From positions 3,616,001-3,680,000 of the forward strand of contig OZ241867.1 in the NCBI GenBank assembly GCA_965203175.1: a DNA stretch of 64,000 nt. The letters run 5' to 3'. This document shows, one piece after another, positions 18,419 to 62,930 of this stretch. Positions within the stretch are counted from its first letter, which is position 1; each line of letters opens with the position of its first letter. This DNA comes from Candidatus Latescibacterota bacterium (GTDB lineage: Bacteria > Latescibacterota > UBA2968 > UBA8231). The translations under genes were made by a program, and so were the position numbers. Under the pieces are notes generated by a model. It worked only from the letters and a program-made list of their open reading frames with translations. It did not search any database and was not told the origin of the DNA.

Positions 18419-18432
18419 TCGAGGCTAGAGCG

Positions 18433-19236: not shown

Positions 19237-19240
19237 TCGC

Positions 19241-20296: not shown

Positions 20297-20339
20297 AAGA
20301 CCGCCCCCAATCTCTACTTCATTCCACACAGGAGGACCG

Positions 20340-38580: not shown

Positions 38581-38595
38581 CTAACAGACCCCTCA

Positions 38596-40737
38596 CTACC
38601 AAGAGAACAGGAAGTTGCCGGTGCGCCCCGTGAAGTAGTCGATGATGAGCCAGAGGCCGAGGGTCAGCATCTGACCGGCGATCATCCCGAGGAAAAACCC
38701 CTGAGTACGGGGGTAGAGGTTGACGCCTCCGCACCGGACGATGATGACCTTGATGAACCAGGCGACGAACACGCTGGTAATGATGTGGGGCATCAGGTCC
38801 ACGGCCGCGACCGGGAAGCCGATCGGGTGGAGAGGCCACCAGGGCAGGCGGTGGCGAGCCCAGTAGAGCAGGGCCATGATGCCACCGCCACCGAATAGGA
38901 AACCGATGCCCGGCCAGTAGATGCCGGTAGGTTCTAGGTTGCGCACAGCGTTGTCGTAGGCGACCGTCGGTCCCATCTTGAAGAACCAATAATCGAGGTT
39001 GACGCCGCCGTAGCGGTAGGCGGCGTGGAAGATCATCCAGAACGAGCCCAGCGTCCCGATCAGCAGGGCGAGGATGAGAGCGAGGAAGACCAGCCGCCGG
39101 CTGCGCGCGTCCATATCCTCGATCAGCTTGAGGGCGTTCGTGCAGGTCGCCATGGCGAATGACCGGACCTCGTCGGCCCAGATGTAGGCCATGGCCATGT
39201 TGAACACGCCGGTGGGACCGACTAGAGATGAACCGAGACCCATGACGACGAAGTCGGGGGCGTTGACGGGCGTCCGCAGCGTCGCCAGCCCGGCTTCGGC
39301 GATGATCCGGGTGATGCCGATAAAGATCATCATGGCTAGGACGATGAAGAAAAGGGAGACCCATAGCGGTGTGCCCATGATCCACAGCCACAAGGTCATG
39401 ACCGCGATCCCCCCGAGGGTGCCGATCACGGCGCTGCGGTAGGAGAGGATCTCGTCCCGATCGTCGACGAGGGGTGCCCGGCCCAGGGCCTTGAGCCAGA
39501 CCGCCTTCAGATGCTCGCGGGCCGTCCACAGCACCACCGCCACCAGGACCAGCAGGGCACCCAGCCCCTCGTAGCCCACTAGGGGTGAGTCGGGGACGCC
39601 GTGGAAGTGCACCTGCTCCGATTTGATCCCGGCAATCGCCAGCGCGCTCTTCTGGAGCCTGCCGAGCAGGTAAAACACCCACACGCTGCCCGATATCCTC
39701 GTGTCGATGAGGTAGGTGAAGCCGGTCAGGGCGAAGTTGACCTTGCCGTCTAGGTACGGTATCGACAGGCGCATGGACACCATGGGAATGGAGGGGTTGT
39801 AGTTCGACATGGCCCTCAGGCTGCCGACGATGAACGGGATGGCCATGCCGATCCACACGGACGGACGCTTGAAGAAGCCGTTCACCAGCCTGTTTTCGTC
39901 CTCGCCGCGTATCATAGCCAAACCGACCTGGGCGATGGGATAGCTCAGCCGCTCCCGCTCCATCCACTGGCGCCGCAGGATCACGGCGATCGAGATCATG
40001 CAGACGTACAGTGCCAGCAGGAAGACAGCCCACCACAGCAACGGCTCGACCCAGGTGCCGTAGGGGATGCTTTGGCCGGGCTCGGAGATGCCCTCGTAGA
40101 ACAGGACGTTCCCAGCGCCGTCGTCGACTAGGATGTCGCGCTCGGGAAAGTGGGGGAAGAGCTTCTCCCGCCACTGGTTCTCCGGCGAGGCGTAGTAGAA
40201 GATGGCGGTGAGGGTGGGCAGGATCAGCTCGGTCAGGCCCATCGTACACACGGCCGAGACCATCGCCAGCATGGCATACACCATGATCAGTTCGGCGCGG
40301 TTGAGGGCTAGGCTGCGACCGGACCAAGCCAGCGGCACGTTGCCGAGGGCGCAGAGCAGCGCGAAGGTGGAGAAGATCAGCCCGGGCGAATGCACATCGA
40401 CGTCGTTCAGGGGCCAGTAGGAGTAGAGCCAGGCAGCCCCCACCGCCAGGGCAAAAGCGAGGGCTATTTCCCTGCTGCGTGCGGCCAGCTTGAAGGCTAG
40501 GTTGAGTAAGCCGATCAGCACGACGAAGACGAAGATGGCCCCCGGGGTGCTGATGTCGGCGGCCACGTAGGCGCCCTTGATGACCATGTTGCTGTAGGGG
40601 GCGCTGATGGCGAGGAAGAAGCTCAGGCAGCCCCCCACGAAGAACCCCCGCCACGTCAGGCGGTGGCGCGATTCGAGGAGGGGCTCGGAGCGCGACCGCA
40701 GGTACTGGCGGTAGAGCAGGGGGATTTTCTCTTTCAC
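38596..40737 (-). CDS. Polytopic inner-membrane protein, DUF6785/DUF6784-like (putative OPT-like peptide/solute transporter)
   Basis: Many TM helices; ELIMVY, ILRRQWMERERLSYPIAQV, RIIAEAGL, WWPLHPIGF, FFLGMIAG motifs. Confidence 0.8.
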   Translation of the reverse strand: MKEKIPLLYRQYLRSRSEPLLESRHRLTWRGFFVGGCLSFFLAISAPYSNMVIKGAYVAADISTPGAIFVFVVLIGLLNLAFKLAARSREIALAFALAVGAAWLYSYWPLNDVDVHSPGLIFSTFALLCALGNVPLAWSGRSLALNRAELIMVYAMLAMVSAVCTMGLTELILPTLTAIFYYASPENQWREKLFPHFPERDILVDDGAGNVLFYEGISEPGQSIPYGTWVEPLLWWAVFLLALYVCMISIAVILRRQWMERERLSYPIAQVGLAMIRGEDENRLVNGFFKRPSVWIGMAIPFIVGSLRAMSNYNPSIPMVSMRLSIPYLDGKVNFALTGFTYLIDTRISGSVWVFYLLGRLQKSALAIAGIKSEQVHFHGVPDSPLVGYEGLGALLVLVAVVLWTAREHLKAVWLKALGRAPLVDDRDEILSYRSAVIGTLGGIAVMTLWLWIMGTPLWVSLFFIVLAMMIFIGITRIIAEAGLATLRTPVNAPDFVVMGLGSSLVGPTGVFNMAMAYIWADEVRSFAMATCTNALKLIEDMDARSRRLVFLALILALLIGTLGSFWMIFHAAYRYGGVNLDYWFFKMGPTVAYDNAVRNLEPTGIYWPGIGFLFGGGGIMALLYWARHRLPWWPLHPIGFPVAAVDLMPHIITSVFVAWFIKVIIVRCGGVNLYPRTQGFFLGMIAGQMLTLGLWLIIDYFTGRTGNFLFSW

Positions 40738-40843
40738 GGGAGGCGCGTCAGTGGGTGAGGGCGGAGACCGGCCTCCCGCCCGAACGGACCCGAGGTTGGA
40801 GCGATGATGGCGACGCGCTTGCGATCCGCCTTGGTTGATCGCA

Positions 40844-42538
40844 TCACTGTTCCTCTTGTACCAAGGTTCTCAGGTTCTCTTCGTAGATCTTGACCTGGGG
40901 CTTGTACTGGTGCCGCAGTTCGCCTAGGTACCGGAAGAAGGCCGCATCGCGCTTCCGACGCAGGACTATGGCCCGGGCTCGAGGCGCGACCTCGGCGAAG
41001 GGCTTGGGGCCGGCTCCGAAGGTCGACTCGACGACCCTGAACACGGAATAGTAGCGGTCTGCTGACGCCGTACCGCCGGGGGTTACCGGCACTTCCACTT
41101 CGATGGGACCTAGTAGGTCGCCCGGCGCGGCTCCCTGTGCGGCTTCGAACAGGGCTTCGTGCGCTTCTCTCTGGTACTCATGGAGGTGGAATCGCCCGCT
41201 GTCTGGTATGGTCATGCGCCGCAGGGTGTGCTGCTGTGCCAGGACCCGCAGATCCTCACCGCGCTCAATCCGGTCCCGGAGCGATACTGCTTCTTCGCGC
41301 GTTGCGACCAGGATTTCGTCCAGCGTCAGGGCCTCTTGGGGGACGAAGCTCTGGAGATTCTGGGCATAGAAGCGCCGCGCCTCGTCCTCGTCCACCTGGA
41401 CGTCGCCCGTCACTTGCTTCCTGATGACCGCCAGCAGGCGTTCATGCTCCCTGGCTTGGTGCCAGGCGGCCATCTCCGGCTCGCGGTCGATTCCGGCATT
41501 GCGAGCGGCCTGCACGGCGAGCGCGCGGGGAACTAGGACGGACTCCGCAAACCAGCGCACCTGCTTTTGCACATCTCCCGAGAACTCCCGGTAGTTCTCC
41601 CGGGCCGAGTCCACGAACTCTCCCACCGTAATGGTGCCGTTGTCGAACTCGTAGAGTACTGTGCCGCGCTCCGCTTCGGAAAACGCGTGTCCCTCGCTCT
41701 CCAGACGCGTGATGAGAAGCTCAAAACCGTCTTCTCGGGGACGCAGGTTCAGAACTTCCAGCAGTTCTCGGCCAAGCTCTATGGATCGCAGGCGGGCCTT
41801 CTCCCGGTGGAGTTCGGCCCTCACCAGACTTCGCACTCGTTCGAGGGGAACGGGAACCTCGTCCACGACCTTGAACACGCCGTAGGTGCCGTCCGACAGG
41901 GGTATGGGTTCGGAGATCTGGCCCTTCGCGAGCGGAAAGACCTTTTCCCGCATGATGGGCTCGGGCATCTGGTCCTTGGTGGCGGGGTGCCCGGTGAACC
42001 GGCCGCCCCGCTCCGCGGTCGGGCGGTGGGTCGAGCGCTGCCGCGCCAACTCCCCGAAGTCGGCACCGCCCTGCAACAGGCGCACGATCTCCTCGGCTTC
42101 TTCTCTGCTCTCGACCTCGATCTTGCCCCCGATGATCGCGCGGTTCCGTCCGGTCTTCAGGTAGTGGTCGCGGATTTCCCGCTCTTCGACCTCGACCTTC
42201 GCGTTCACTTCCCGGGCAAAGAACTCGTTGACCAGCCGTTCGGTCCATTCGCGCTCCAGCTTGCGGCGCATGTCGGGGTCGCGGTCCCATCCCCGCGCTG
42301 CCGCTTCCCGAATGAGGATCTCCTTGTCGATCAGGGCCTGCAGATGCTGCCGTCGGCCTTCGATGCCCGCCTCCTTGGCTCTCAGGCTTTCCGCCAAGTG
42401 CTCTTCGAAGCGGCGCAACTGCGCTGCGTGAATGCGGGTGTCTCCCACCTCGGCCAGCACCGGCCCCTCCTCTCCTGCGCAACCCAACAGGAAGGTGCCC
42501 AGCACCAGGGCCAGCGGCATTGCCGCGCGTTTCATCAC
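40844..42538 (-). CDS. Parvulin/PrsA-SurA-like peptidyl-prolyl isomerase lipoprotein with two PpiC-like domains
   Basis: Lipobox LLGC, VLAEVGD, LIDKEILIREA, GADFGELARQRS, GQISEPI; second domain EILVATREEA...GEDLRVLAQQHT. Confidence 0.88.
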   Translation of the reverse strand: MMKRAAMPLALVLGTFLLGCAGEEGPVLAEVGDTRIHAAQLRRFEEHLAESLRAKEAGIEGRRQHLQALIDKEILIREAAARGWDRDPDMRRKLEREWTERLVNEFFAREVNAKVEVEEREIRDHYLKTGRNRAIIGGKIEVESREEAEEIVRLLQGGADFGELARQRSTHRPTAERGGRFTGHPATKDQMPEPIMREKVFPLAKGQISEPIPLSDGTYGVFKVVDEVPVPLERVRSLVRAELHREKARLRSIELGRELLEVLNLRPREDGFELLITRLESEGHAFSEAERGTVLYEFDNGTITVGEFVDSARENYREFSGDVQKQVRWFAESVLVPRALAVQAARNAGIDREPEMAAWHQAREHERLLAVIRKQVTGDVQVDEDEARRFYAQNLQSFVPQEALTLDEILVATREEAVSLRDRIERGEDLRVLAQQHTLRRMTIPDSGRFHLHEYQREAHEALFEAAQGAAPGDLLGPIEVEVPVTPGGTASADRYYSVFRVVESTFGAGPKPFAEVAPRARAIVLRRKRDAAFFRYLGELRHQYKPQVKIYEENLRTLVQEEQ

Positions 42539-45426
42539 TCCCTCAAACCTCCGTATACGGTGAAGTAAGTCAGGCCGCTCGTGTCCGTCCGGCCTTTGTG
42601 GACGAAGATGTCGATCTTCCGCCTGTCCACCCGAATCCCCAAGGTAGCCATCAGCCGATAGCCCGCGTAATTGCTCGCATTGGTCAGCTGCAGGGCGACG
42701 GAGAGTTCGTTGAAATCGCCGGTGGGATCGCCCGGATTCAGGCCGGCGAGGGGGTCGTCATCGAAGGCCACCTCCCGTTGGGCGAAGTCGCGGAAGATAA
42801 CCTGCTCTAGGCCGACGATTACCCTGCTGTGTCTCAATACTGGGATGTCCAGTCGCAGGGAGGCCAAGCCGGCCCACTCCTTGCGCTCGAACACCCGGTC
42901 GTTCAGGAGCCATTCGGTGTTGAACGGGGTATCGTCTAGGAACAGCTCGTGTTTGACGCGCGGACGGAGTTGGATTCCATTGCGCAGAGGCCAACGCCAG
43001 TCCAGCTTGTTGATCAAACCGAGCCGCCGAGTGTGCTGCGAGATCTTCCGGCCCGTCTGGTCCGCGGTGAGCTTCTCTCGTTGCCGCAGCACCTCATAGA
43101 TCAGCTTGTTCTCGGAGTTGATGCCGGCATGGCCCCGGCGCTCGAAGGTTAGGGACAGCTTGTTGACCCAAGTATTCGGCATGCCCAGCGGATCCGGGAT
43201 CGGGGTCATGCCCGCGTCCCTGAACCTTCCGTGCAGCCATTGGAAGAGGTCGTCGGCGATGTCGTCCTCGACCCGCTTCAACATGTTATAGACCGTCAAC
43301 TCGCCCACGTTGGGATAACTGCGCTCGAACGCGAAAAGGGTATAGCTGCTCACGTTGGTCTCGCCGGTTGAGGGACGGCGCACCCGCTGGTGGCCCGCGG
43401 TGATCTTGGCGCTTGGCACGATCCACGCACTGCCGTACACGTTGAATCCGCGGCGGTCGCGCTTGTACGGGTAGTCAGGTTCGTTGTCGTTCTCGAAACG
43501 GTCGCCCCAGCCGTTGTTGTTCATGTCGAGGCCGAAGAGATACTCGGGCCGGTCCACGCTGTAGCGCAGGAAAGGCTCGGCGTAGTCGGGCACATTGTTG
43601 GGCCGCACCCGGGTGTTGTTCTGGTTGAAATCGGAGATGAAATCGTTGTTCTCGTCGAGGCCGGGAAAAACCGCCTCGTCCGCGTACCCCTCGAACCCGC
43701 GCTGGATGCCGGTGCCCCGTTCCTCTTGGGTGCGGCCGTCGTCGAATATGCGCTGCTGGTCGTTCTTGCGGTCGTTGTCGTCGTTGTCGTCGACGAAGTC
43801 GTAGAGGTAGCGGGAATTGGCCAGCGGTGTGTCCGCGTAGTTGACCCGGCCCGCCGAGTCTATGAACCGCATGGTGGTCGAGTATGCGGCGTCCATGCCG
43901 AAGGCCTCGCCGAAGAGGTAGTACGGATGGAAATCCCTGGCCACGTTGACCATCCACCCTGCGGCGGAGGGATTTCCCCGAATGCCCGATGAGGTGGTGT
44001 GGGTGGTACGGCTCACGTCGGGGTACTTGCGGTACTGGTGGTTCACGTTGAACTCGCCGTAGAGCCTGAACCCGGCCAGATTCTCGGCCTCGACCGTAAA
44101 GCCGAGGACCTGGGTGGCAGTGGGCAGTCCGTAGTCAAAGACCACGGTGCCGAGGTTGGAATGGTCCTGCACATTTCCCTCAGCCCGCACCATGGTCCTG
44201 AACACCGGGCGCGGTTCGTAGAGGGCGTTGTCGGTCTGCTGGTCGGAAGTGACTTCGACCTTGTAGTCATTGCTGAGGATCATCCGGAATCGGACCTTGC
44301 TGATGTTGTTGATCACATCGGCTAGGGGCACCACCGTTTCCAGATCGTCGAGGATCGCCGGGTCCGGATCCGCCAGCACGTAGTCCAGTCGAATCCGTGC
44401 CAGTTCGCCACCGCCTTCGGCTGCTAGGAAGCCATCCCGAGAGACGCCTCCCGAAACCCTCGGATGGAAGCCGATCTGGCTGCCCACCAGCACCGTGTCC
44501 AGTTCTCCTACCCGGGTCGTAATCTCGATATCGTGGGCGAAGAGGGCGGGACCTGACTCGCCGTCTTCTGGGGAATCGTCGATAATCCGCACGGTGATCC
44601 GGTTGATGCGCGCGCCCGCCTGGTGGGAGCTCAGCCTGCCGGTGTATGGACTCCCGTCGAAGGGCTTGGTCGAGCTCCGCGCGTTGTGCGCGTTCACAAA
44701 GGTTCCGCCGAGGCGCGCGAAGTCGGCCACGTTCCAGACGGCCCGGAGACCGACGAGCGTGGTGAATTCGTCGATGAAACTGGACCTTGGCTCGACCAGC
44801 GGGACATTGATTCTGGACATGAGGGCCGTGGCCGAGCCGCGATCCGACATGTAGTCGAACTGGACCCCGTTGAAGGCCGTCTTGCGCAAGGTCATGGGCG
44901 TCAGGGTCGTGCTGATCTCGTCGCCGATGCTCACCCGGAAATGGTGCTGCCCTTTGGCGTCTGCAGAGACTACGAGGGAGCTGAGAAGGTTCTTGTAATC
45001 TTCGGTCTTGTGGAGCAGATTCCCCTCAGAGGTCCGGGGCCGGCTCTGTTGCCAGTCGTAGATCAGCCAGCCTCGGGTCAGGAGCCTGCCGTAAAGATCG
45101 TAGTGATAGTCGCCCTCCTGATCGGTGGCTAGGTAACGCGAATAGCGCTCGAAGGCGTAGTTGGTCGCCTCCCACTGCCAGCGGTATTGGTTGGCGACCT
45201 CCTGGGGCATGTACCATTTCTTGAGGGAAGGATCGAAGGTGTCCGTGCGCATGCTGGGACCCGCCGGGTAGTAGCTCACCCGGCCGCCTTCGCGGATTCC
45301 GAGGCGATTTCCGTAGTCCGACTGGGGCGAGCCGGGCTCGGCACCCAACGCGACTGCGAGGCCGACGAGGATTAGGGTTCGGGACCCGGATTGCACGGTG
45401 TGCACTTGGGGGGACTTGTTCATCAC
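42535..45426 (-). CDS. Large exported protein, putative outer-membrane beta-barrel with Asp/Asn-rich Ca-binding-like repeats (paralog B)
   Basis: Signal peptide; DDNDDNDR, PGLDENNDFISDFNQN, GLDMNNNGWGDRFEND; amphipathic beta strands ending YFTVYGGLRE; collinear with 45423-48257. Confidence 0.75.
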   Translation of the reverse strand: MMNKSPQVHTVQSGSRTLILVGLAVALGAEPGSPQSDYGNRLGIREGGRVSYYPAGPSMRTDTFDPSLKKWYMPQEVANQYRWQWEATNYAFERYSRYLATDQEGDYHYDLYGRLLTRGWLIYDWQQSRPRTSEGNLLHKTEDYKNLLSSLVVSADAKGQHHFRVSIGDEISTTLTPMTLRKTAFNGVQFDYMSDRGSATALMSRINVPLVEPRSSFIDEFTTLVGLRAVWNVADFARLGGTFVNAHNARSSTKPFDGSPYTGRLSSHQAGARINRITVRIIDDSPEDGESGPALFAHDIEITTRVGELDTVLVGSQIGFHPRVSGGVSRDGFLAAEGGGELARIRLDYVLADPDPAILDDLETVVPLADVINNISKVRFRMILSNDYKVEVTSDQQTDNALYEPRPVFRTMVRAEGNVQDHSNLGTVVFDYGLPTATQVLGFTVEAENLAGFRLYGEFNVNHQYRKYPDVSRTTHTTSSGIRGNPSAAGWMVNVARDFHPYYLFGEAFGMDAAYSTTMRFIDSAGRVNYADTPLANSRYLYDFVDDNDDNDRKNDQQRIFDDGRTQEERGTGIQRGFEGYADEAVFPGLDENNDFISDFNQNNTRVRPNNVPDYAEPFLRYSVDRPEYLFGLDMNNNGWGDRFENDNEPDYPYKRDRRGFNVYGSAWIVPSAKITAGHQRVRRPSTGETNVSSYTLFAFERSYPNVGELTVYNMLKRVEDDIADDLFQWLHGRFRDAGMTPIPDPLGMPNTWVNKLSLTFERRGHAGINSENKLIYEVLRQREKLTADQTGRKISQHTRRLGLINKLDWRWPLRNGIQLRPRVKHELFLDDTPFNTEWLLNDRVFERKEWAGLASLRLDIPVLRHSRVIVGLEQVIFRDFAQREVAFDDDPLAGLNPGDPTGDFNELSVALQLTNASNYAGYRLMATLGIRVDRRKIDIFVHKGRTDTSGLTYFTVYGGLRE

Positions 45427-48257
45427 AGTCCAGCATACACGGTTATGAAGGTGGTGCTCAATTCGCGGCCCCGGTCTTCCTGCACCGACTCTCCTTGGTT
45501 ACCGGCGGCGATGAACTCGTCCCAGACCCGGGTGTACATGATGCCGAATTTGGTGGTCAGGGTGTAGCCTTGGTATTCCCGGACGTTGGACCACTGGGCG
45601 GCCAGCACTAGGTTGCGGGAATCACCCGTGGCCCCCACTCGGTTGGCGGCGAGGGCCTCCTTCTCGTCCAGCATCAGATCCGCAACCCGGTGGTACTCCA
45701 GCCCGGCCTCGAGAGACGACGCTTTCAACATGGGATGCCGCAGCAGCAGGATGCCCGTTCCCGTCCACTCTTGGCGCTCGTCACCGCCCAAGATGAACGG
45801 CGTCTGGTTCAGGTACTCGCTCTTGATCTTGGGTTGGACCTCTAGGCCGCCGACGCGGTAGGTGTAATCCGCTTTGTTGATGAGCCCGAAGAAGTGAGTG
45901 CGATCCTCGAGTACGGGGCCGACGCCCCGCTCGTGGGCATCTCCCTGCTGAGCATACAGGTCGTACTTGATCTTGGTAAGCGTCTTCAGTTTGCTGACCG
46001 GGCGATAATCCAGTTCCAGATAAGTCGAGTTCACCCAGGTGTCGCGGGCCGGGAGCACGTCCTCGATGTTGATTAGGTTGCCGGCGGTCAGACCGAGGTA
46101 AGGAGTCATCTCCCGGCGGTCGTCGGGTATGGTGTCCCTGGTCCGCTTGAGCATGTCGTAGACCCGAACCGCTCCGAACCGGGGATCGTCGCGGGTGAAG
46201 ATGACCAGCCCGTAGGTCGTGTGGTTCTTGCGATTGGAAGACAACGAGTTGACCCCCAAGCGCCCTAGGGCAATCCTGATGTCGGGCGTCAGGAAAGCGC
46301 CGCCGTACACGTTGTACCCCCGCTGGTCCGCCTTGTAGGGATAGTCGGCCAAATCGTCGTTCTCGAAGCGGTCCACCCAGTTGTTGTTGTTCAGGTCGAT
46401 GCCGAAGAGGAACTCGGGCCGGTCCGAATGGAAGCGGAAGAAGGGCTCCTCGTAGTCGGGAATGCGATTCGACAGAATGGCGCTGTCGTTCTGATTGAAG
46501 TCCGACACGAAGTCGTTGTTCTCGTCCCATCCCGGGAACACGTTGGCATCGCCGGAGCCTTGCTCAAACCGAGCCCAGTCGGGAAACCGGTCCTGGTCGT
46601 CATTGTCCTCGACGAACTCGTAGAGGTGTCGGGACGAATGGTCGTAGAGGATGTCCCCCTGGCTGTCTACGAGGTACGCCGTAGTAGAGTAGTCGGGGTT
46701 CGTGCTGAAGGCCTCGCCGAAGGCGAAGAACGGATAGGCCACCTTCGACACATTGACCATCCACGCCTCTGCCTCTCTGGAATAGCTGGACAGGGCGCGG
46801 TCTGCTTGGGCCAAGCTGGGGTTGGGGAACTGGTGGTAGGACCGGCTGATGGCCAGTTCGGCGTAGGCATCAAACCCCATCACATCCTTGACGTCTGCGG
46901 TGAATCCGTAAACCATGTTCGCCGTGGGCAAGCCGTATTCGAAGACGAGCCGGGTCTGGTTGGAGTTGTCCGGCACATTGCCTGCGGCCCGGGCCACTTC
47001 GAAGAGCGCCGGTGCCAGTTCGTCGATATCCTCGCCGCTGAGCGGCAGGTTGGGCATGGAGCGCAATCCAGTCTGACGGTCGGACCATACTTGGATGCGG
47101 TAGTCGTTGGCCACCACCAGATCGAAGGTGATCTTTGTGATGGTGTTCGGACGCGGCCCGATGTAGGCGATGTCGGTGAAGTCGTAACTGATTACGATCT
47201 TCTCGTCCCCGTCCGCGCTCTGGTAGCCCTCGTGGTGGAATCCGCCGCTGACTACGGGCCACTTGGCCGGATCGGTCACCATCGCCTGCTGGCGGATCTC
47301 CTCCCGCCTCCCGGTGGCCGGATCCTCCGTGGTTACGATGATCTCGTGCGAGAACAGGGCCGCGCCGGCCACGCCGTCCTCCGGTGAATCGTCGCTCAGA
47401 ACGAGGGCCAGGCCGCGCACCGGGACCGCCCCCTGGTTGGCCGCCAGCGTGCCCTTGAGCGGGTTCCGCTCGAAGGCGTCCTCAAAGGTCTGGGAGTTGT
47501 GGGCGTTGACCAGAGTCGCCCCCACTTGCACGAAGTCCCCAACCTCGGCGACGACCCGCCCTCCCATTAGGTTGGTGCCATTGGTCGTCGTTACGGGTGC
47601 GTTCCTAGGCGTAGTACCTGCGACGGCAGAGCTGATCCGGGAAAAGAGCAGCGTGCCGCGGTACTTGTCCGAGGCGAAGTCCATCTGTATGCCGTTGAAG
47701 TTGGGTTTGGAGAAGGTGAGCGGCGTCAACGCCGTTCTGATCTGATTCCCGGCCGTTATGGCATAGTAAAACTGGCCCTTGGAATCCGAACTCACCAGGA
47801 CGCTGTTGAACCAGCCGGCGAACCTGGGATCCTTGTAGAGCGAGGAACCGAACTGCCCGGGCTGGTTCTGGTTCCAATCGTAGACCAGCCACCCCCGGGT
47901 CAGGTAGTTGCCGTATAGATCGTAGAAGGGGTCGCCCTCGCGGTCGGTGTTTACGTACCGCTGGTACTGTTCGCGGGCATAGTTGGAGTACTCCCACTGC
48001 TGCCAGCCGTACAGCTCGTACAGCTCCTGTGGCACGTACCACTTCTTGAGGGCCGGATCCAGGGCGTCGAAGATGACCCCAGGTCCTCTCGGTGCATAGG
48101 TTATATCCCGCCCTCGACGCTGTCCGAGACGCCGGTCGGAGGACTGACCGCACACCTCGGATACCTGCATCGTGGCGATGAGCGCGAACGCGCTCAGTAC
48201 TCCCGCCGCCTTGCCGGTCGTCAACATGAAGAGGCCCTCTCTCGGTGAAATCGCCAA
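45423..48257 (-). CDS. Large exported protein, putative outer-membrane beta-barrel with Ca-binding-like repeats (paralog A; start may be ~48227)
   Basis: Signal peptide; DPALKKWYVPQE, YDLYGNYLTRGWLVYDW, DDSPEDG, EDNDDQDRFPD, PGWDENNDFVSDFNQND; ends FITVYAGL. Confidence 0.75.
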   Translation of the reverse strand: MAISPREGLFMLTTGKAAGVLSAFALIATMQVSEVCGQSSDRRLGQRRGRDITYAPRGPGVIFDALDPALKKWYVPQELYELYGWQQWEYSNYAREQYQRYVNTDREGDPFYDLYGNYLTRGWLVYDWNQNQPGQFGSSLYKDPRFAGWFNSVLVSSDSKGQFYYAITAGNQIRTALTPLTFSKPNFNGIQMDFASDKYRGTLLFSRISSAVAGTTPRNAPVTTTNGTNLMGGRVVAEVGDFVQVGATLVNAHNSQTFEDAFERNPLKGTLAANQGAVPVRGLALVLSDDSPEDGVAGAALFSHEIIVTTEDPATGRREEIRQQAMVTDPAKWPVVSGGFHHEGYQSADGDEKIVISYDFTDIAYIGPRPNTITKITFDLVVANDYRIQVWSDRQTGLRSMPNLPLSGEDIDELAPALFEVARAAGNVPDNSNQTRLVFEYGLPTANMVYGFTADVKDVMGFDAYAELAISRSYHQFPNPSLAQADRALSSYSREAEAWMVNVSKVAYPFFAFGEAFSTNPDYSTTAYLVDSQGDILYDHSSRHLYEFVEDNDDQDRFPDWARFEQGSGDANVFPGWDENNDFVSDFNQNDSAILSNRIPDYEEPFFRFHSDRPEFLFGIDLNNNNWVDRFENDDLADYPYKADQRGYNVYGGAFLTPDIRIALGRLGVNSLSSNRKNHTTYGLVIFTRDDPRFGAVRVYDMLKRTRDTIPDDRREMTPYLGLTAGNLINIEDVLPARDTWVNSTYLELDYRPVSKLKTLTKIKYDLYAQQGDAHERGVGPVLEDRTHFFGLINKADYTYRVGGLEVQPKIKSEYLNQTPFILGGDERQEWTGTGILLLRHPMLKASSLEAGLEYHRVADLMLDEKEALAANRVGATGDSRNLVLAAQWSNVREYQGYTLTTKFGIMYTRVWDEFIAAGNQGESVQEDRGRELSTTFITVYAGL

Positions 48258-48264
48258 ACCAGGT

Positions 48265-50448: not shown

Positions 50449-50464
50449 TCGATAGCCCCTAGCG

Positions 50465-53011: not shown

Positions 53012-53043
53012 CTGGGAGCCGTTGACTAAAGTTCCTGTGGGCC

Positions 53044-55011
53044 TCAATACGCCACCGCGATCAGGCGGGTTTCGCTGTCGCGGCCCCCTTCGCGATCGAC
53101 CGCGACCCGGCATACGTAGAGCCCCGGCGGCACCAACTGGCCATCCCTGTCACGTCCGTCCCAAGGCTGGATGTACTGACCCGAATGGTCCCGGCCCACA
53201 TACACCTCCCGCACTAGCCGGCCCGATAGATCCCATACCTCGACCTCCACCAGCCGGTTCTCGGTCAATTTCAGCAGGTCGTACTGAATCGCCACCGCGT
53301 CGTTGATGCCGTCTCCGTTGGGTGTAAACGCGGCCGGCTCGATCCGCAGCCTGCCCACAATTGACGCGCCCAGCGACAGCGTCTCGACCGACAGACGGTT
53401 GCCGTCCAGCGCGTTGGTCGCATCGCCGCCCCGCACCGGTTGCCAGACCTCAGCCGGCGCTTGGCTGTCGAAAACGCGACCTTGGAAGGTCGCCGCATAC
53501 CGATACACTTCGCCCCGCAGCCGAACCTGCAGCAACTCGCCGCTCTGGTTCACCTCTAGCCGCGGAAAGCTCACCACCACCCGGTTCTCGGTGCGCAGGC
53601 TGTCCGCTTCCGTGAACGCTACCGCCGCTCCCGCCATCTCGACCTCGACCACCTCCACCACCCGGCCCCCCTGAAAGCGCAACTCAAGGCTGTCGAAACC
53701 CCGATCCTGCAGCGACAAGGTGGGCCGCACCGCGTACGTGAACTCGGTCAGCTCCGACGTCTCGGCCTGCCACGGATCCACCTCTCCCACCAGATCCGTC
53801 GCCGCCGGCGGCGACGAAACCGCGAATTCGAGGAAATTCACCTGCCCCCCATCTAGAAAATCACTGGCGAAGTCAAGCGAAAACTGCACGTAGTTGCGCG
53901 GCCGCGGTGCCACCATCGGCACCCCCAGACTGTCGCCAAATGAATACGGTGCCGACCACAGGTCCCAGTTTGCTGCGTCATGGGTGATGCGGCCTTTCTC
54001 TTTTTCCTTCAGCTTGTCGTACTGCGCTCGGGTCAGCGGCGATCCGTCCGCCCCATACGGGACCTCCTCGTCGCCCCGGAAGGTCCGCCGCCAGTACCGA
54101 GATGGCTCTGGATCGTCGCCGCCATGACTGCGAATCGCTACCCGGGCCGACTCGTCTTGGCGGCCCGACCAGCGCACCCAGCCCAGACTGGAGGGGGAGC
54201 CCAGCGGAATGGTGTTCGAGGTATAGCTAGCGAACGGTACATACCCCTCGGCGAACGCCTCCATCTCCGCAATCTCCCACGCCTGCCGCTGAAACGGGTT
54301 GACCCACAGCGCCAACTGTCGCACCGGCGTCCGGTCGAGGGGGATCTCCACCACTGGGCTTTTGTTCTGCGTGATCTCCGTCACCAGATCGAAGTCGAGC
54401 GGCGTTTCTCGAACGAGTTTTCTGTGGAATTCAAGGTGAGATCGGTTCGGCGTTCCCCCATGGGGTACGCCACTGCCGGTGGCGATGGCCATGTGCTCGA
54501 TGTAGTGCGGGGAGCCGGGCCGCGGCGACACCCGCACCCGGTTCACCGGGAACAGGCCGCCCAGGTCGAAGTACAGGGTGAAGCCGGTGATACCGCCGCC
54601 CGGACTGTAATCCGACAGCGACGCATTGTGTTCCAAGAAGAAGGTGGTGAAGTCCCCATCCGCGACCACGTCCAGGTTCGGATCGTGGCCATAGCCCGTA
54701 TAGCGCTCGGTCCTCAAGAAGCCGCCCCGTTCTTCCGCTGTGGCCAGGATGCTCTCGTCGCTGCCGTAGTAGAAAGGTGCCAGCGCTCCAGCTAGGTTGA
54801 CGCTGTCGAAGTCGCCGGCCCGGGCGGGATCCACGTCGGTCCAGCTCAACTGCTCGAACTCGACGCTGCCGTCTGCTACCTCCGGGAGCAGGGGAAAGCT
54901 CGCGTAGTCCTCGCCGCCCAGCCGGTAGATCTTGACCGCATCTGCGGGACGCCACATTCCCGCGCCCACCACTAGGCACAAGAGCAGGCCTGCCAATCGC
55001 GCTTTTGCCAA
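53044..55011 (-). CDS. Exported discoidin-like protein with C-terminal FlgD-Ig/CHU_C-like domain
   Basis: TTG start at 55011 after GAGGG; signal peptide; DGDFTTFF, FDLGGLFPVNRVRV, WEIAEME; WDLWS; FTPNGDGIND...WDGRD...VPPGLY. Confidence 0.8.
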   Translation of the reverse strand: MAKARLAGLLLCLVVGAGMWRPADAVKIYRLGGEDYASFPLLPEVADGSVEFEQLSWTDVDPARAGDFDSVNLAGALAPFYYGSDESILATAEERGGFLRTERYTGYGHDPNLDVVADGDFTTFFLEHNASLSDYSPGGGITGFTLYFDLGGLFPVNRVRVSPRPGSPHYIEHMAIATGSGVPHGGTPNRSHLEFHRKLVRETPLDFDLVTEITQNKSPVVEIPLDRTPVRQLALWVNPFQRQAWEIAEMEAFAEGYVPFASYTSNTIPLGSPSSLGWVRWSGRQDESARVAIRSHGGDDPEPSRYWRRTFRGDEEVPYGADGSPLTRAQYDKLKEKEKGRITHDAANWDLWSAPYSFGDSLGVPMVAPRPRNYVQFSLDFASDFLDGGQVNFLEFAVSSPPAATDLVGEVDPWQAETSELTEFTYAVRPTLSLQDRGFDSLELRFQGGRVVEVVEVEMAGAAVAFTEADSLRTENRVVVSFPRLEVNQSGELLQVRLRGEVYRYAATFQGRVFDSQAPAEVWQPVRGGDATNALDGNRLSVETLSLGASIVGRLRIEPAAFTPNGDGINDAVAIQYDLLKLTENRLVEVEVWDLSGRLVREVYVGRDHSGQYIQPWDGRDRDGQLVPPGLYVCRVAVDREGGRDSETRLIAVAY

Positions 55012-55067
55012 GATGTCACCCTCTTGTCGTGTGGGCTCAACCCGCGCACCGTTGGGCTGATTATTAG

Positions 55068-55101
55068 GGAAGGGGGGATGTGAGACCACATCCCCCCTTC
55101 C
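55068..55101. terminator. Perfect 15-bp stem-loop (terminator/attenuator or mRNA-stabilising element)
   Basis: GGAAGGGGGGATGTG-AGAC-CACATCCCCCCTTCC between the first and second genes of the operon. Confidence 0.75.
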
Positions 55102-55150
55102 TTCGCGCTATGGAGCTCGAACCGCTAGCAGCGAACCTGCTCGTCGCCAG

Positions 55151-56065
55151 CTACTGAGTGAACGCAGCCTTGATGCGGCCCCAGCTCTCGGCTTCGACTG
55201 CCGTGCCAAAATCGACATCCTCCAACGGAGCCAGCAGGAAGTCGGTGGATACCGACGAGGTTTTCCAAACCGTTGCCTCGCCATTCAGGATCCACTGATC
55301 TCGGTCGTTATTCTCCGTATTGTCATAGTCGGTGATCTCCCAGTTCAGACCGATGATATCACCTTCTACCATGTCGTGCACCACACTGCCGTCTGGGTCA
55401 TCCCACTGCAGGTCGTCCCACAACGTGAGCATCCACTCTGCATGGCCGGTGACGTCGGCGGCGTTGAGCGCGGCGGCATCCGACGAGTACCCATTGTCGG
55501 CCCACGGCAGTTCGCCGGTCCAGGTAGCTTGGCTCTGCCAGTACCAGGCCCACGCCGTCGCCTCGTTGTTCACGTTCGGCGACGAAGGATCGATATCCGG
55601 GAGGCGGAAGTGGATATTCTGGGCCCAGCGCGAGCCGTTTTCCGGCTCTGCTCCAGGGTCATACCAGGAGTCTTCGCCGCCGTGGTCCCCGTCGACGTTC
55701 ATCTCGAAGCTGTCGGGTAAGTTAGCTTCGGCAACGAGAACGGAGACGTCCCGCTTGCGGAAATTGTCGAACACCTCGTGGTGCATATAGAGACGATCGG
55801 TACTTGCGCTATAACCGACGATGACCTTGCTGTTGAGACTGGACAGGTCTGTCCACTTCTCGCCGGACGGAGACGCGTAGTACTCTGGCCCAATCCAGTA
55901 GTCCGCGGGAACCACGGCCCACTCGGACAGATCCCCGTCCAGGGTCGGCTCGGCACCCGCTGGGAACTGGAACGCGAGCAGAACTTGGCCCTCTGGCACA
56001 TGGCCCCAGGCGGAAAAAGCAAAGCCCACAGTCAGGCACAGGGCGATAAGCATAGCCTTCTTCAT
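55151..56065 (-). CDS. Exported CBM9/DOMON-like protein with C-terminal TAVEAESWGRIK motif
   Basis: GGAGG RBS, MKKAMLIALCL signal peptide; PTLDGDLSEW, DSFEMNVDGDHGG, EGDIIGLNWEITDYD; the upstream part of the 559-aa ORF overlaps the TPR gene. Confidence 0.8.
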   Translation of the reverse strand: MKKAMLIALCLTVGFAFSAWGHVPEGQVLLAFQFPAGAEPTLDGDLSEWAVVPADYWIGPEYYASPSGEKWTDLSSLNSKVIVGYSASTDRLYMHHEVFDNFRKRDVSVLVAEANLPDSFEMNVDGDHGGEDSWYDPGAEPENGSRWAQNIHFRLPDIDPSSPNVNNEATAWAWYWQSQATWTGELPWADNGYSSDAAALNAADVTGHAEWMLTLWDDLQWDDPDGSVVHDMVEGDIIGLNWEITDYDNTENNDRDQWILNGEATVWKTSSVSTDFLLAPLEDVDFGTAVEAESWGRIKAAFTQ

Positions 56066-56205
56066 TATGTGGAACCTCCACGATGCTGATTCCCCGGCCC
56101 TAGGCGCTCTAGGGCAGCAGGAATCGGGTTGCATGAACATTTTGTAGTAATGTATAAATTGGTCTTGGTGCGGGGCAATAAAAAAACCGAGACCGACCAC
56201 ACTCG

Positions 56206-57744
56206 CTAAGGGGCGAGTTGTGCCATGCGTGCCTCTAGCGCTGCAAGCTGACGGGCATCTCCCCGCCAGTAGGCGACCGCTAGCCGGTATGCCCGCAGTG
56301 CCGCATCCACTTGGCCCGTCTGTTCGTATGCCTCTCCGAGCGCGTAGTGGGCCTTCGCGTTGGTGGCGTCCAACCTCTCCACGGCCTCGAACACCGCGAT
56401 CGCTTGGTCGTAGGCTTGCTGGCGGAGGTAGAACTGTCCGAGGCTCAGGCGGGGCTCGACCCAATTCGGCCGGTGGCGGATCGCTGTCTTGTAGGCCTGC
56501 TCGGCCTGGTCCAGGCGTCTCTGAAGCAGCCCCACGTTGCCTAGGGCGTGGTGGGCTTTGGCAAACGTCGTGTCTACTTGTAGGGCCTGCTCGAAGGACC
56601 GACGGGCTTGGTCCAGGTGTCCGTTCTGGACGGCGACGTAGCCGATGGTGAAGTGGGCCTCGCAGGCTTCGCGCTGATTCGGGGCTTGGGTGATCACCTG
56701 GCGGGCCAGCGCCACCGCTTCGTCTAGGTTGCCCTGATTCAGGTAGGCATGGCCCAATCCTGAGAGGGCTCTGACATGCTCGGGCTGGCGCTCCAAGACC
56801 GCCCGGTACATTCCGATGGCCTGCTCCCACCGGCCGAGCTCGCCGTAGGAGCGCCCCGCCGCCAGATAGGAATCTAGGTCGCCGCCGGCCTGATTTACCT
56901 GTTTTTCCAAGGCTCGCACTTGGGCGGCCCGCCGGTTCAGCTCGGCAAAGCGGTCGAGCAGTATCTGGGCTTGCTCCTCGCGCCCTTGGGCGGAGTAGAG
57001 ATTGGCCATACTGTAGTAGGCCTCGGGATAGGCCGGGTCGATCTCGAGAGCCCGGCGCAGCATTCCTTCGGCCTCCTCGTAGCGCTCCGCGTAGGTGTAG
57101 AGCACCCCGAGTTCCCGGTGGGCCTCCTTGTTGTCGGGATCGAATCTGACAGCGCGCGTCAACAGATCCTCAGATTCTGCCCGGCGTCCTTGCAGCCGAA
57201 AGAGTCGGCCCAAGCTCCACAGCGCCTCAGCATCGGCTGAATCGGTCGCCACGGCCCGCACTAGGGCCTCCTCGGCCCGGTCGTACGCCCCCTGTTCCTG
57301 GTGCAGACCGGCCAAAAGACGGTACGAGGGAGCCGTGCCCGGATCGATGCGCACGGCCTCTTCCAACAGGGCGACCGCCTCCCGGTGGCGTTTCATCTCT
57401 CCGTAGGCCACGGCCAGATTGTGGTAGGCCAGAACAAGGCTCGAATCCAGACGAATGGCGGCCAGATACGCGGTCTCCGCCGAATCCCTGCGGCCCAACT
57501 TCATGTAGGCCGTGGCCAGATGGCAGTGGGCTTCCGCGGAGAGGGAGTCCAGGGCCACTGCCTGCTGATACGCGGCGAGTGCGTCGCGGTACCGGGCTTG
57601 GCGGAAATAGGTGTGCCCGAGCGTGCGAAGCCGGTCTTTCTCTGGGTCCGGTGCCGGCGATTCAGGTGCTTGGCACGCGCCCAGCCAGATCGCCATCAGG
57701 GCAGCGGTGGTGCGGCGAAACAAAACTGCGTACGTCGAATGCAT
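56206..57744 (-). CDS. Tetratricopeptide-repeat lipoprotein
   Basis: Lipobox LGAC; about a dozen TPRs (AYHNLAVAY, AHRELGVLY, AHHALGNV, AHYALGEAY). Confidence 0.9.
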   Translation of the reverse strand: MHSTYAVLFRRTTAALMAIWLGACQAPESPAPDPEKDRLRTLGHTYFRQARYRDALAAYQQAVALDSLSAEAHCHLATAYMKLGRRDSAETAYLAAIRLDSSLVLAYHNLAVAYGEMKRHREAVALLEEAVRIDPGTAPSYRLLAGLHQEQGAYDRAEEALVRAVATDSADAEALWSLGRLFRLQGRRAESEDLLTRAVRFDPDNKEAHRELGVLYTYAERYEEAEGMLRRALEIDPAYPEAYYSMANLYSAQGREEQAQILLDRFAELNRRAAQVRALEKQVNQAGGDLDSYLAAGRSYGELGRWEQAIGMYRAVLERQPEHVRALSGLGHAYLNQGNLDEAVALARQVITQAPNQREACEAHFTIGYVAVQNGHLDQARRSFEQALQVDTTFAKAHHALGNVGLLQRRLDQAEQAYKTAIRHRPNWVEPRLSLGQFYLRQQAYDQAIAVFEAVERLDATNAKAHYALGEAYEQTGQVDAALRAYRLAVAYWRGDARQLAALEARMAQLAP

Positions 57745-58207
57745 CGCGCAGTTTTCCGTTGGGTCACGAGGTTGACCGGGGGCGACATGACGTGAGGAGG
57801 GCTAGAGTCGGGGAAGAGAATTGCCACCCGTGGACGTCTTCGCGTCGCCGACCGAATATAAGCCATCGGCACCAACCCCAACAGCTTGAGTGCTGGTATC
57901 AGCAGGGCCGTTTCGTCGGCCTCGTTGACCAATGTACCCGCTGGCTTGGTCAAGTTGGCTTCGCCAAGTCTAGGCGATTGACGCGTCCGGTGCCGATCTC
58001 TAGTATAGGTGCCCGCGTGGGGCAGGGGACCGGAGAGCTTGGACGCCTAATACAACTTCAGCAGGCCGGACCAGCGGCGACACCCCGAGACGGAGCAGAG
58101 CGTGACTTGGCAGGAACGAGCAGCAGTCCTGTGGGGCCGTGGACGCAACCGAGCCCCGGCCGGAGTCGAGAGCGGGGGAGTGGGCGTCAGCGGATTACTG
58201 TCCCCCA

Positions 58208-60039
58208 TGGCTTGGTGGATCGGGGCCGTATTTCTTTTGGCCTTGGCGGTCCGCGTCGTCTACACCCTAGAGATCGATGCCAGTCCACTATTCGCCCACC
58301 CAGCGGTGGACTCGCTCACCTATACCCAACATGCCGAGCGCTTGGCGGCCGGCAACTGGCTGGGACGGGGCGATGGCCCATTTTGGCAGCCGCCGCTTTA
58401 TCCCTATCTGCTCGGCGTGCTGAAGACGCTCTTCCCGGGGTCCTTCTTCTACGCCGTGCGTTTGGTCCAGGCGTTGCTTGGTGCCCTGACCTGCGCCCTG
58501 ATCTACTGGCTGGGGCGGCAGGTCGCCCGTCCGGCGGTTGCCGCCGCGGCAGCCGTGGCCACGACCCTGTGTGGCCCGTTGATCTTCTTCGACGGCGAGC
58601 TTTTGCCCGCGTCCCTGGCTACCTTCCTCAATCTGGCCGGCCTCTCCCTTCTCTGGCAGACGCTGCATCGGCCCTCGGGACCTGGCTTTCTGGGCGTCGG
58701 CCTAGTCTTCGGATTGGCCGGACTGGCCGTGCCCACGGTCCTCGCCTTCGTGCCGGTAGCCGCGGCTTGGATCGGGTGGCGGTTGCGCGAGTGGGGCGGA
58801 CGGCGGGCCGCGATCTGGGCTGGGCTCTTCTTGTTGGGCGCTGCCCTGACGATCGCGCCGGTATCCCTGCGCAACGCTGTCATCGGCGGCGACCGCGTCC
58901 TCATCTCCTATAACGCTGGCATAAACTTCTACGTGGGCAACAACCCGGACTACGACAGCACCGTCAATGCGCGGCCCGGTTTGGAGTGGGGCCGCATCGT
59001 GGGCTTGGCCCGCAAGGCAGGCATAGACCGACCGTCCCACCAGTCGCACTTCTTCCTAGCCCGGTCTTGGGACTACATCAGCTCCCAACCCCTCGATCAT
59101 ATCTCACTGCTGGCCCGGAAACTCTTCCTCTTTTGGCACGGAGACGAGATTGGCCGGAACCAAGACATATACTTCTGGCGCAACTACTCGACGGTCCTGG
59201 CGGCGACTCTGTGGAAGGGGGGGATAGCTTTCCCATTCGGGGTCATCGCACCGCTGGCGCTGCTCGGCCTGCTGCTGTCGGGGCGGCGGCAGGAGTTCGT
59301 CCTCTTCGCCGTCTTCGTCGGCGTGTACTGCCTCTCGGTAGTCGCCTTCTTCCCGACGGCCCGCTACCGCGCCCCTCTCCTCCCTCTGATCGCGTTCTTC
59401 GCGACCCTGGGTGCCTGTTGGATCTGGGCCGGCCTCCGGGCTCGGCAGTATGGTCAGGCCGGCCTAGCTTTGGCCGTGGTTGTCGTGTTCGCGGCAGCCG
59501 TCAACCATCGGCTAGCGCCCATGGACATGGCTGGAAACGCGGCGATCCACTACAATTTGGGCACCGCCTTCGGCGAGGTGCGCGAGTTCGAACAGGCGCA
59601 GCGCGAACTGGAGCGGGCCGTGGAGCTGGATTCCACCTACTGGCAGGCTTGGCTCAACCTAGGAAGTGTACTCGGGGTCCGAGGCAACCTGTTAGAAGCG
59701 GCCCGCATCTTCGCGCGGGTCCTGCAGGAATCCCCGGACCAGGCCAAGATCTGGCTCAACTTGGCCCATGCCCGGCGGGCCTTGGGGGAACGGCCAGCAG
59801 CCCTGGCAGCCTACGAGGGGGCCCTGCGGGCCAATCCCCAAGAGCGGGGAGTCTACTTGGAGCTGATAGACTATCACCTGGAGGTAGGCGATGAGAAGGG
59901 GGCCGAGGGGATCTTGGAGCGAGCCGTGACCCATTTGCCCGGCGACGCCGCGCGCCTGCGGCATGTATTCGGATTGGCCCGCGACCGCTACCGGAAGGGG
60001 CGAGGCACTGAGGGCCATACGGATGGAGTGGACCCATGA
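58208..60039 (+). CDS. GT-C (PMT/ArnT, GT39-like) glycosyltransferase fused to C-terminal TPRs (start 58102-58208)
   Basis: LALAVRVVY, VDSLTY, FWQPPLYPYLLG, NFYVGNNP, ARYRAPLLP; TPRs HYNLGTAF, WLNLGSV, WLNLAHA. Confidence 0.85.
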
Positions 60040-62871: not shown

Positions 62872-62930
62872 GGTCTCTCTCTTTCCGTTTTCTTCAGATA
62901 AAGAATACGTCGCGCTGTGCAAGCTCGTCC

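Follow-up and report, generated by a model that had tools for sequence, protein, structure and literature searches.

A Conserved Envelope Gene Module of Latescibacterota with Paired Predicted Barrels and Type-B-Like Tailed Proteins

Uncultured but widespread, the Latescibacterota break down organic matter in sediments and lakes as well as in seawater and sponges. Comparison of related loci shows that they hold a fixed, anciently assembled gene set for two large predicted outer-membrane barrel proteins, three exported proteins with characteristic C-terminal tails, a protein of the CBM9 fold, and a parvulin lipoprotein. The copy analyzed here lies in a stretch of 64,000 nucleotides (the window; positions 3,616,001 to 3,680,000 of contig OZ241867.1, assembly GCA_965203175.1), and the set, called the module below, is apparently an undescribed one of this phylum. 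The reading that we prefer, with a probability of about 40%, is that the module forms a barrel-anchored surface complex for ligand capture, probably with uptake, resembling a Sus-type utilisome built from different parts.

Gene Content of the Module

The window had first been interpreted from its letters alone (the sequence-only reading) as holding eight co-oriented genes joined by overlaps or short gaps, and all eight are present there on the minus strand. They belong to an unbroken run of co-oriented genes at 37756–57744, as seen from the listing of open reading frames (ORFs) and their translations. In the direction of transcription, the eight encode an exported protein of 304 aa with a CBM9/DOMON fold (55151–56065), the tailed proteins tail1 (53044–55011 or 55089), tail2 (50465–53011 or 53113), and tail3 (48265–50448), the exported ~950-aa paralogs bigA (45423–48227 or 48257) and bigB (42535–45426), a double-parvulin peptidyl-prolyl isomerase (PPIase) lipoprotein (40844–42538), and a polytopic inner-membrane protein with DUF6785 and DUF6784 domains (38596–40737). 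The bigA/bigB and bigB/PPIase junctions are 4-base overlaps, and the remaining gaps measure roughly 7–140 bases. The TPR lipoprotein gene reported upstream of the eight and the divergent gene for a GT-C glycosyltransferase are both there; the former (56206–57744, minus strand) is itself co-oriented with the eight genes, and a further lipoprotein gene (37756–38580, minus strand) follows that of the supposed permease. A consensus scan of 38300–58200 for promoters and terminators did no better than shuffled sequence (2 against 3.2 expected; 13 against 12.1 expected), so that the operon structure is taken from gene spacing only. Pfam and NCBIfam scans agree with the sequence-only reading in finding neither a TonB-dependent receptor nor a SusD, secretin, or ATPase domain in the module region.

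Recurrence and Evolution

A profile search of genome contigs with the barrel family matched at least 672 stretches; 632 of them passed confirmation, and the best 80 loci, which bear L numbers below, were retained. Genes were counted by tblastn of the window proteins in the 61 of these loci that have both 10-kb flanks and are called complete, 19 shorter loci being set aside. By record label, 60 of the 80 loci come from Latescibacterota or Latescibacteria, 18 from Gemmatimonadetes, -ota, or -aceae, one from Planctomycetota, and one from an 'uncultured bacterium'. The barrels labeled Gemmatimonadetes lie at near-zero tree distance from those of Latescibacterota, and we read these labels as binning or naming differences. 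The module is present in several copies per genome: at least four loci were found on each of OZ220721.1, OZ247580.1, and OZ253462.1, at least three on OY282352.1, and at least four in each of two metagenome-assembled genomes.

The content of the complete loci is fixed, which bears out the earlier proposal of a dedicated, conserved multi-subunit envelope module now that synteny and co-occurrence have been searched. Tail3 directly precedes the first barrel (barrel A) in 61/61 complete loci, and in 71/71 when the count takes in every locus whose sequence reaches at least 2.3 kb beyond bigA on the upstream side. The second barrel comes next in 60 of the 61, either directly or with the PPIase gene in between. 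Three tailed proteins are encoded in 53 complete loci, two in three loci, four in three, and five in two; the CBM9-like gene is found in 54/61 and the PPIase gene in 51/61. Within 10 kb, a TPR homolog occurs in 26/61 and the GT-C gene in 12/61. Conservation of gene order thus holds for tail3 and the two barrels, but not for the other members, whose order varies between locus types while the membership stays constant. Selection on a complex, rather than inherited synteny, would give such a pattern.

A maximum-likelihood tree was built from 142 barrels, taken from the window and from 71 loci whose matches run uninterrupted over nearly the full length; one locus contributed its first barrel only, and nine loci were dropped. 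First and second barrels are split on a single branch, with a support of 100 in the Shimodaira–Hasegawa-like approximate likelihood ratio test, and none of 500 shuffles gave a value as low. Because of this single-branch split, the duplication into barrels A and B must be older than all locus types, with one of each kept ever since. Together with the recurrence counts, it rules out a chance juxtaposition of the module genes.

The Two Large Barrel Proteins

BigA and bigB are paralogous, as had been noted, with 37% identity (355/955). Neither has a Pfam match even at E ≤ 10, Plug (PF07715) and TonB_dep_Rec included, and a search of PDB sequences with the barrel profile gave no match. An AlphaFold2 model of bigA from a 52-row alignment (predicted local distance difference test, pLDDT, 71; predicted template modeling score, pTM, 0.71) contains, by secondary structure assignment with DSSP and our own count, 22 long strands in residues 163–943, mostly in antiparallel pairs. 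The connections alternate between 2–3 residues and longer loops, and because short periplasmic turns alternating with long outer loops are typical of the class, bigA is read as an outer-membrane barrel. We therefore model bigA and bigB as outer-membrane β-barrels of ~22 strands, forming a family without Pfam or PDB relative.

In a Foldseek search against PDB, the bigA model met only large outer-membrane barrels, which is consistent with the prediction that the large proteins are membrane barrels. Deinococcus SlpA came first, followed by LptD, MtrB, TonB-dependent transporters, ushers, and SprA; since the TM-score on the query is at most 0.25, none of them is a specific structural relative. The barrel neighbors in the ESM Atlas fall into 30 clusters, all without a Pfam family, and the nearest named cluster, DUF6029 (0.89, 160 shared features), lies below the level at which a match was counted and serves as a lead only. 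An exhaustive profile search gathered 968 cluster representatives at E ≤ 1e-3. Among 46 full-length distant members drawn from 150 listed representatives, a Pfam scan showed no link to Plug or TonB families and nothing beyond sub-threshold matches to SlpA_C (PF21620) in 10 of them, the best with 30.2 bits against a cut-off of 35.

Two insertions stand on the long-loop side of the model. The first (residues 256–442) is a well-modeled β-sandwich. The second (residues 520–644, window ~46326–46700) is an acidic stretch rich in Asp and Asn, modeled with low confidence, and it is the most conserved part of the barrel, with 45 of 125 columns invariant (36%) against 126 of 944 overall. Asp and Asn make up 28% of it, and the repeated D-x-N-x-D/N-x-x-x-D spacings resemble calcium-binding loops, making this stretch a candidate docking site for the tails. 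The region before the first strand (residues 43–150) is also highly conserved (20/108 columns invariant) and is poorly modeled. Because these ~110 N-terminal residues lack confident modeling, the barrels are not asserted to be TonB-independent. A prediction from alignments of the complex between bigA (40–944) and the tail of tail3 (635–727) returned 0.00 twice in runs without controls; it gives no verdict and weighs neither way.

The Tailed Proteins

The three tailed proteins are 27–34% identical pairwise over their full length, and Pfam recognizes FlgD_ig and CHU_C (PF13585) at the C-terminus of each. Tail1, an exported protein of ~650 aa for which 55011 is the likelier start, ends in a FlgD-Ig/CHU_C domain of ~92 aa (FlgD_ig 30.8 bits; CHU_C 29.4 bits against a cut-off of 27). 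Tail2, probably starting at 53011, is similar and carries in addition an N-terminal F5/8 type C (discoidin) domain (F5_F8_type_C, 34 bits). CHU_C scores remain below the cut-off in tail3 (21.6 bits) and tail2 (18.1 bits); FlgD_ig reaches 34.6 bits in tail3 and is below its cut-off in tail2. The related model TIGR04131 scores 20 against a cut-off of 35 in the window tails. A search of PDB sequences with tail3 returned the FlgD Ig domain as the sole relative.

A short motif marks the tails. PNGDGIND stands 92 aa before the stop in tail1, and tail2 has the motif 95 aa before the stop; both end in Tyr. The window contains three copies of the pattern P[ND]GDG.ND. Across 64 of the 80 related loci 128 were found, always 91–98 residues before the stop, and a terminal Tyr is present in 128/128 of these proteins. 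When 40 paralogous tails out of 61 listed, from 22 chosen loci, were scanned, FlgD_ig was present in 39/40 and CHU_C in 35/40 at E ≤ 1e-3, with 17/40 reaching the CHU_C cut-off. These results support the resemblance to the type-B C-terminal domains of T9SS (type IX secretion system) that had been proposed from the sequence. A search with the tail region found 62 proteins, nearly all with tail-like lengths and domain sets; it detects only proteins sharing exact words, and other cargo with the same tail is possible.

The sequence-only reading had described all three as paralogous discoidin proteins with FlgD/CHU_C tails. Paralogy and tails stand, but a discoidin domain is recognized only in tail2. 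Among the scanned paralogs, it was found in 10/10 proteins of the tail2 class and 0/30 of the tail1 and tail3 classes, and when the profile of the tail2 discoidin domain was compared with tail3, E was 0.63 and only W..DLG..V.RI was shared; tail1 and tail3 are therefore not treated as discoidin proteins. A PEP-CTERM/exosortase reading, raised by weak matches to the PrsT and EpsD models, was also rejected: the tails have no PEP-CTERM anchor and no exosortase was found.

In a related locus, a DUF3179 protein outside the module (L047:3703–5202, minus strand) carries a classical type-A-like tail, NHPNPFNP...LLW, unlike the module tails. Two kinds of tail thus coexist in genomes with the module, which suggests a general T9SS-like signal and hints at a T9SS-like route.

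The CBM9-Like Protein and Other Module Members

The protein encoded at 55151–56065 starts with MKKAML and has a signal peptide. It has no Pfam match at E ≤ 10 and nothing meaningful in a PDB sequence search, and the earlier CBM9-like call is borne out at the level of the fold only. A model built by AlphaFold2 with 38 orthologs (pLDDT 80.5, pTM 0.81) has as its best Foldseek matches in PDB the CBM9 structures 7nwn, 7nwo, and 1i82 (E 9e-10 to 1e-7), with TM-scores on the target of 0.69–0.71 (7nwn, 0.71) at 16% identity. A putative carbohydrate-binding protein of Bacteroides follows, and then DOMON-type heme subunits (NxrC, EbdC). Because these heme-binding relatives match as well, the protein is a putative sugar binder only. 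The last ~15 residues (from the gene end at 55151–55200) form a conserved peptide, TAVE..SWGRIKA, which is not covered by the model. WG.[IVLM]K occurs in the last 30 aa of 56 CBM9-like homologs and of one other protein among 936 ORFs, and this WGxIK peptide may be a docking element.

The PPIase lipoprotein is SurA/PrsA-like. It has an LLGC lipobox and matches Rotamase (PF00639, 52 bits against a cut-off of 21.7) and Rotamase_2 (PF13145, 55.9 bits), with weak NCBIfam matches to PrsA, SurA, and EpsD. Its description as a double-parvulin protein is borne out by two parvulin-like halves with 28% identity (E 2e-7), the second of which has diverged.

After a gap of 106 bases comes the gene of the DUF6785/DUF6784 protein (713 aa; PF20581 E 6e-110, PF20580 E 1.5e-24). 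Twelve hydrophobic peaks and the genomic context lead us to infer that it is a permease. DUF6785 and DUF6784 are its only matches at E ≤ 10, with no match to OPT (PF03169) and no PDB relative; its named homologs are called only 'DUF6785 family' or 'hypothetical', its Atlas neighbors are all DUF6785/6784 proteins, and a literature search found no paper mentioning DUF6785. In one locus type (L026–L033), DUF6785 is present as two to four tandem genes that occupy the opposite strand, alongside genes for Amidohydro_2 and FGE-sulfatase (for example L033:5–3863 and 17050–20787). In three closely orthologous loci, the PPIase and DUF6785 genes are separated by an inserted gene whose 1464-aa product carries an FtsX-like domain (L003:17377–21771, L004:17429–21823, and the matching gap in L025).

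At the upstream end, the TPR lipoprotein (512 aa, LGAC lipobox) matches TPR_2 with E 8e-64 and many further TPR Pfam families. At the other end, the small Ala-rich lipoprotein (274 aa), whose gene starts 15 bases after the DUF6785 gene, matches no family and has conserved counterparts in just two close orthologs of the locus, L001 and L002; its G+C content at third codon positions is 0.57 against ~0.8 in the module genes, and its membership in the module is doubtful.

Similarities to Known Systems

Genes for T9SS type-B cargo adjoin the genes of cognate PorP/SprF barrels that hold or shuttle the cargo (passages of PMC9143113 and PMC12618676), and PorE, which combines TPR with other domains, binds PorP (passages of PMC9143113 and PMC12773672). 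The module resembles such pairs (SprB-SprF, PG1035-PorP) in combining Sec signal peptides with a ~100-aa C-terminal β-sandwich matching CHU_C, in the direct adjacency of a cargo gene and an outer-membrane barrel gene, and in the TPR envelope protein nearby. However, its barrels do not belong to PorP/SprF (PF11751), are ~950 aa long, and come as an A/B pair serving three cargo paralogs, and its tails end in an invariant Tyr and mostly fall below the CHU_C and TIGR04131 cut-offs. No PorP/SprF or other T9SS family was recognized among the scanned ORFs of the window.

Compared with the SusC/SusD utilisomes of Bacteroidota, the module likewise occurs at many paralogous loci in a genome, flanked by varying sets of enzyme and regulator genes, and has a predicted barrel of ~22 strands behind a conserved N-terminal region as well as surface proteins with carbohydrate-binding folds. 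On the other hand, it shows no match to Plug, TonB_dep_Rec, or SusD and has two barrels per locus; its TPR lipoprotein matches classical TPR families, not SusD/RagB, and its surface proteins bear C-terminal tails rather than lipid anchors, with no glycoside hydrolases seen. Deinococcus SlpA gives the best, though weak, structural matches to bigA besides the SlpA_C matches of distant relatives, but its barrel has 30 strands, whereas the multi-copy module barrels have ~22 predicted ones and no SLH domain. The 304-aa protein shares the fold of the CBM9/DOMON-like superfamily; unlike CBM9 modules, it stands alone instead of being part of an enzyme and has the extra C-terminal WGxIK peptide.

The module is thus similar to both the type-B cargo/PorP pair and the Sus-type utilisome and is a member of neither. 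Its barrels belong neither to PorP/SprF nor to any other described family. No description of the module was found in the literature, supplements and subscription journals lying outside the search, so that a description elsewhere is possible. The search also found no paper linking Latescibacterota or Latescibacteria to T9SS (type IX secretion) or FlgD Ig-like tails to outer-membrane secretion, nothing relevant on T9SS in Gemmatimonadota or Fibrobacterota (PMC11495043 has no mention of T9SS or Latescibacter), and, in work on the outer membrane and polysaccharide utilization of Latescibacteria, no description of the module.

Possible Functions

In the capture-and-uptake reading, the A and B barrels would assemble into a hetero-oligomeric platform within the outer membrane. 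By analogy with type-B cargo, a T9SS-like route would bring the three tailed proteins to the surface, and their tails would hold them on the barrels as PorP/SprF hold such cargo, perhaps at the acidic, calcium-loop-like insertion. The parvulin lipoprotein may act as a periplasmic chaperone of the barrels or the tails. Domains of sugar-binding type (discoidin and CBM9 fold) would capture a glycan or glycoconjugate, which would pass through the wide barrels, and in the window the adjacent DUF6785/DUF6784 protein may then move the ligand across the inner membrane. Through its many paralogous copies of the module, a genome would handle different substrates. Transport is favored because of the size of the barrels, the tight and sometimes multiplied linkage of DUF6785, and a multiplicity, with variable catabolic flanks, that resembles polysaccharide utilization loci. 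A stronger version, in which a heteromeric pair of plugged 22-strand barrels of a hitherto unrecognized family installs three interchangeable binding subunits and imports substrate, independently of SusCD and the canonical T9SS, with its own parvulin chaperone and a calcium-dependent contact, like that of cohesin and dockerin, between the Tyr-ended tails and the D/N-rich loop, is speculative and rather doubtful. If true, it would be a new kind of nutrient machine in the outer membrane, standing in Latescibacterota for what the utilisome is in Bacteroidota.

The flanking genes offer a view of the context. Across the 80 loci, 235 accessory ORFs of at least 150 aa without a match to window proteins form 104 clusters; 117 proteins were scanned, namely 53 ORFs from 18 representative loci and 64 cluster representatives, the remaining representatives being part of the 53-ORF scan or antisense to module genes. 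FG-GAP+UnbV_ASPIC proteins are the most frequent family (26 loci), followed by Pentapeptide_3 (12) and Amidohydro_2 (10). PhyH, Receptor-L (LRR), D-Glu-cyclase-like proteins, MR_MLE dehydratases, and further PMT_2+TPR genes occur at six loci each, SBP_bac_5 and FGE-sulfatase at five each, sulfatase at four plus singletons, and AraC regulators, HpcH aldolase, and 2-hydroxyacid dehydrogenase at three each. Kelch and MORN proteins are also among the neighbors. None of the 117 is a PorP/SprF, SprA, Gld, Plug, or TonB/ExbBD protein.

Several points weigh against capture with uptake. The transport step is itself deduced, and the strands were counted on the DSSP assignment for a model of pLDDT 71 rather than on coordinates. 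Neither a Plug, a TonB box, nor an energy source is recognized. The surface location of the CBM9-like protein, which lacks both a tail and a lipobox, is unexplained, and the discoidin domain is confined to the tail2 class. Of the 61 complete loci, 24 have one to four DUF6785 genes within 10 kb and 37 have none; the link to the permease is accordingly weaker than in the earlier proposal of a surface complex feeding a permease. The connection of DUF6785 to OPT consists of an OPT annotation on 11% of the members of one archaeal Atlas cluster. The commonest accessory genes (FG-GAP+UnbV_ASPIC and Pentapeptide_3, with TPR genes in 26/61) look structural or adhesive, and the 117 accessory proteins include no glycoside hydrolase or polysaccharide lyase and a single BNR sialidase-like candidate.

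The last of these observations fit another reading, in which the module is only a platform for display or adhesion: the barrels would anchor three surface proteins that bind glycans of hosts or particles, nothing would be transported, and the permease and enzymes would be unrelated. The adhesion- or repeat-type neighbors (the FG-GAP+UnbV_ASPIC, Receptor-L/LRR, Kelch, and MORN proteins), the many loci lacking the permease gene, and the absence of hydrolases among the scanned accessory proteins all point this way, as does the order of tail gene and then barrel gene, which copies that of type-B cargo and PorP/SprF, where the role is anchorage or shuttling (passages of PMC9143113 and PMC12618676). 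But two barrels of ~950 aa and ~22 strands far exceed the size needed for anchorage. PorP/SprF proteins have only ~300 aa. Moreover, the DUF6785 gene is tightly linked where it is present, as the short gap in the window and the two to four copies in L026–L033 show, and catabolic and regulatory genes recur in the module flanks. Display alone is the strongest competitor, only somewhat less likely than capture with uptake.

The barrels might instead serve to export the tailed proteins, as a translocon independent of T9SS with the parvulin and TPR lipoproteins as chaperones. A barrel of 22 strands is, however, small beside SprA, which has 36, and translocation by the A and B barrels is a proposal only. 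In favor of such an assembly machine, most paralogous loci carry their own PPIase, and a structure of the T9SS translocon SprA includes a bound PPI protein (PDB 8gl8, by its entry title). The tail variant is almost confined to proteins of the tail family, as nearly all of the 62 tail-region matches indicate, and the non-module protein of L047 carries a different tail; the restriction of that search to exact-word sharers means, though, that other cargo may exist. We regard an export function as improbable. A role like that of the abundant outer-membrane proteins SlpA and OmpM, as a wall tether or as the carrier of a surface layer that the tailed proteins would build, is very improbable: although Deinococcus SlpA supplies the top three Foldseek matches (7zgx, 8ae1, and 8agd; E ~1e-7) and distant relatives touch SlpA_C, the TM-scores are only 0.17–0.25, the window proteins have no SlpA_C match at E ≤ 10 and no SLH domain, and a single structural tether does not agree with a genome's having four or more copies that have diverged and differ in their flanks.

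Neighboring Genes in the Window

Divergent from the module, a plus-strand gene (58102–60039) encodes a membrane glycosyltransferase of the GT-C type (PMT_2) with TPR, its PMT_2 score being 26.2 bits against a cut-off of 26.1. Homologs in related loci score higher (L026:61–1968, 59.9 bits; L034:1033–3198, 56.9 bits), and the architecture, with the TPR part C-terminal, recurs beside the module. It mirrors that of the eukaryotic TMTC O-mannosyltransferases, which modify Ig-like domains. By this analogy, the likeness would suggest glycosylation of the tailed proteins.

Beyond it lie a gene at 60065–60973 (plus strand), whose product gave empty Pfam and NCBIfam scans, and one at 60985–62922 (minus strand) for a 645-aa protein that matches no Pfam or NCBIfam family, even at E ≤ 10, and nothing meaningful in a PDB sequence search. 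The latter is syntenic with the module in other loci: its homolog follows the PPIase gene in L015, L017–L020, L023, and L024 and precedes the DUF6785 gene in L039 and L045. This 645-aa protein may be an unrecognized enzyme or subunit.

A family of ~520-aa Pentapeptide_3 proteins accounts for the 12 loci mentioned above and often adjoins FG-GAP+UnbV_ASPIC and TPR genes; a pentapeptide-repeat protein is also encoded in the window (12707–14029, minus strand). Downstream of the module lies a gene for a hybrid GAF-PAS histidine kinase with a receiver and an OmpR-type DNA-binding domain (34140–36620, minus strand), a homolog of which was found in 0/61 complete related loci. Between this gene and the module, 36767–37330 (plus strand) encodes a GH108 lysozyme with PG_binding_3, in a stretch of low G+C content (0.54 at 36–38 kb against ~0.62 elsewhere); the protein may be a phage-derived endolysin or an autolysin. 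At the other end of the window, 249–12710 holds a complete urease cluster (UreD, a UreAB fusion, UreC, UreF, and UreG) enclosing an ABC transporter of the urea/branched-chain type. The transporter consists of a periplasmic binding protein, two ATPases, and two permeases, one of which has HEAT repeats. An OmpL-like porin is also encoded inside this region.

Significance

A 2015 genome study of Latescibacteria assumed non-specific porins for the passage of substrates through the outer membrane (a passage of PMC4454575). Because it is multi-copy and strongly conserved and its barrels have no Pfam or solved relative, the module is a prime candidate for how members of the phylum meet their substrates or hosts. 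It combines a known theme, tailed surface proteins with a cognate barrel, with new parts, and a new kind of machine is a real possibility. The module would extend the pairing of type-B tails with partner barrels beyond Bacteroidota and onto a quite different barrel. It also places the DUF6785/DUF6784 family in a functional context for the first time, and its seven proteins make up a defined set that structural work can address.

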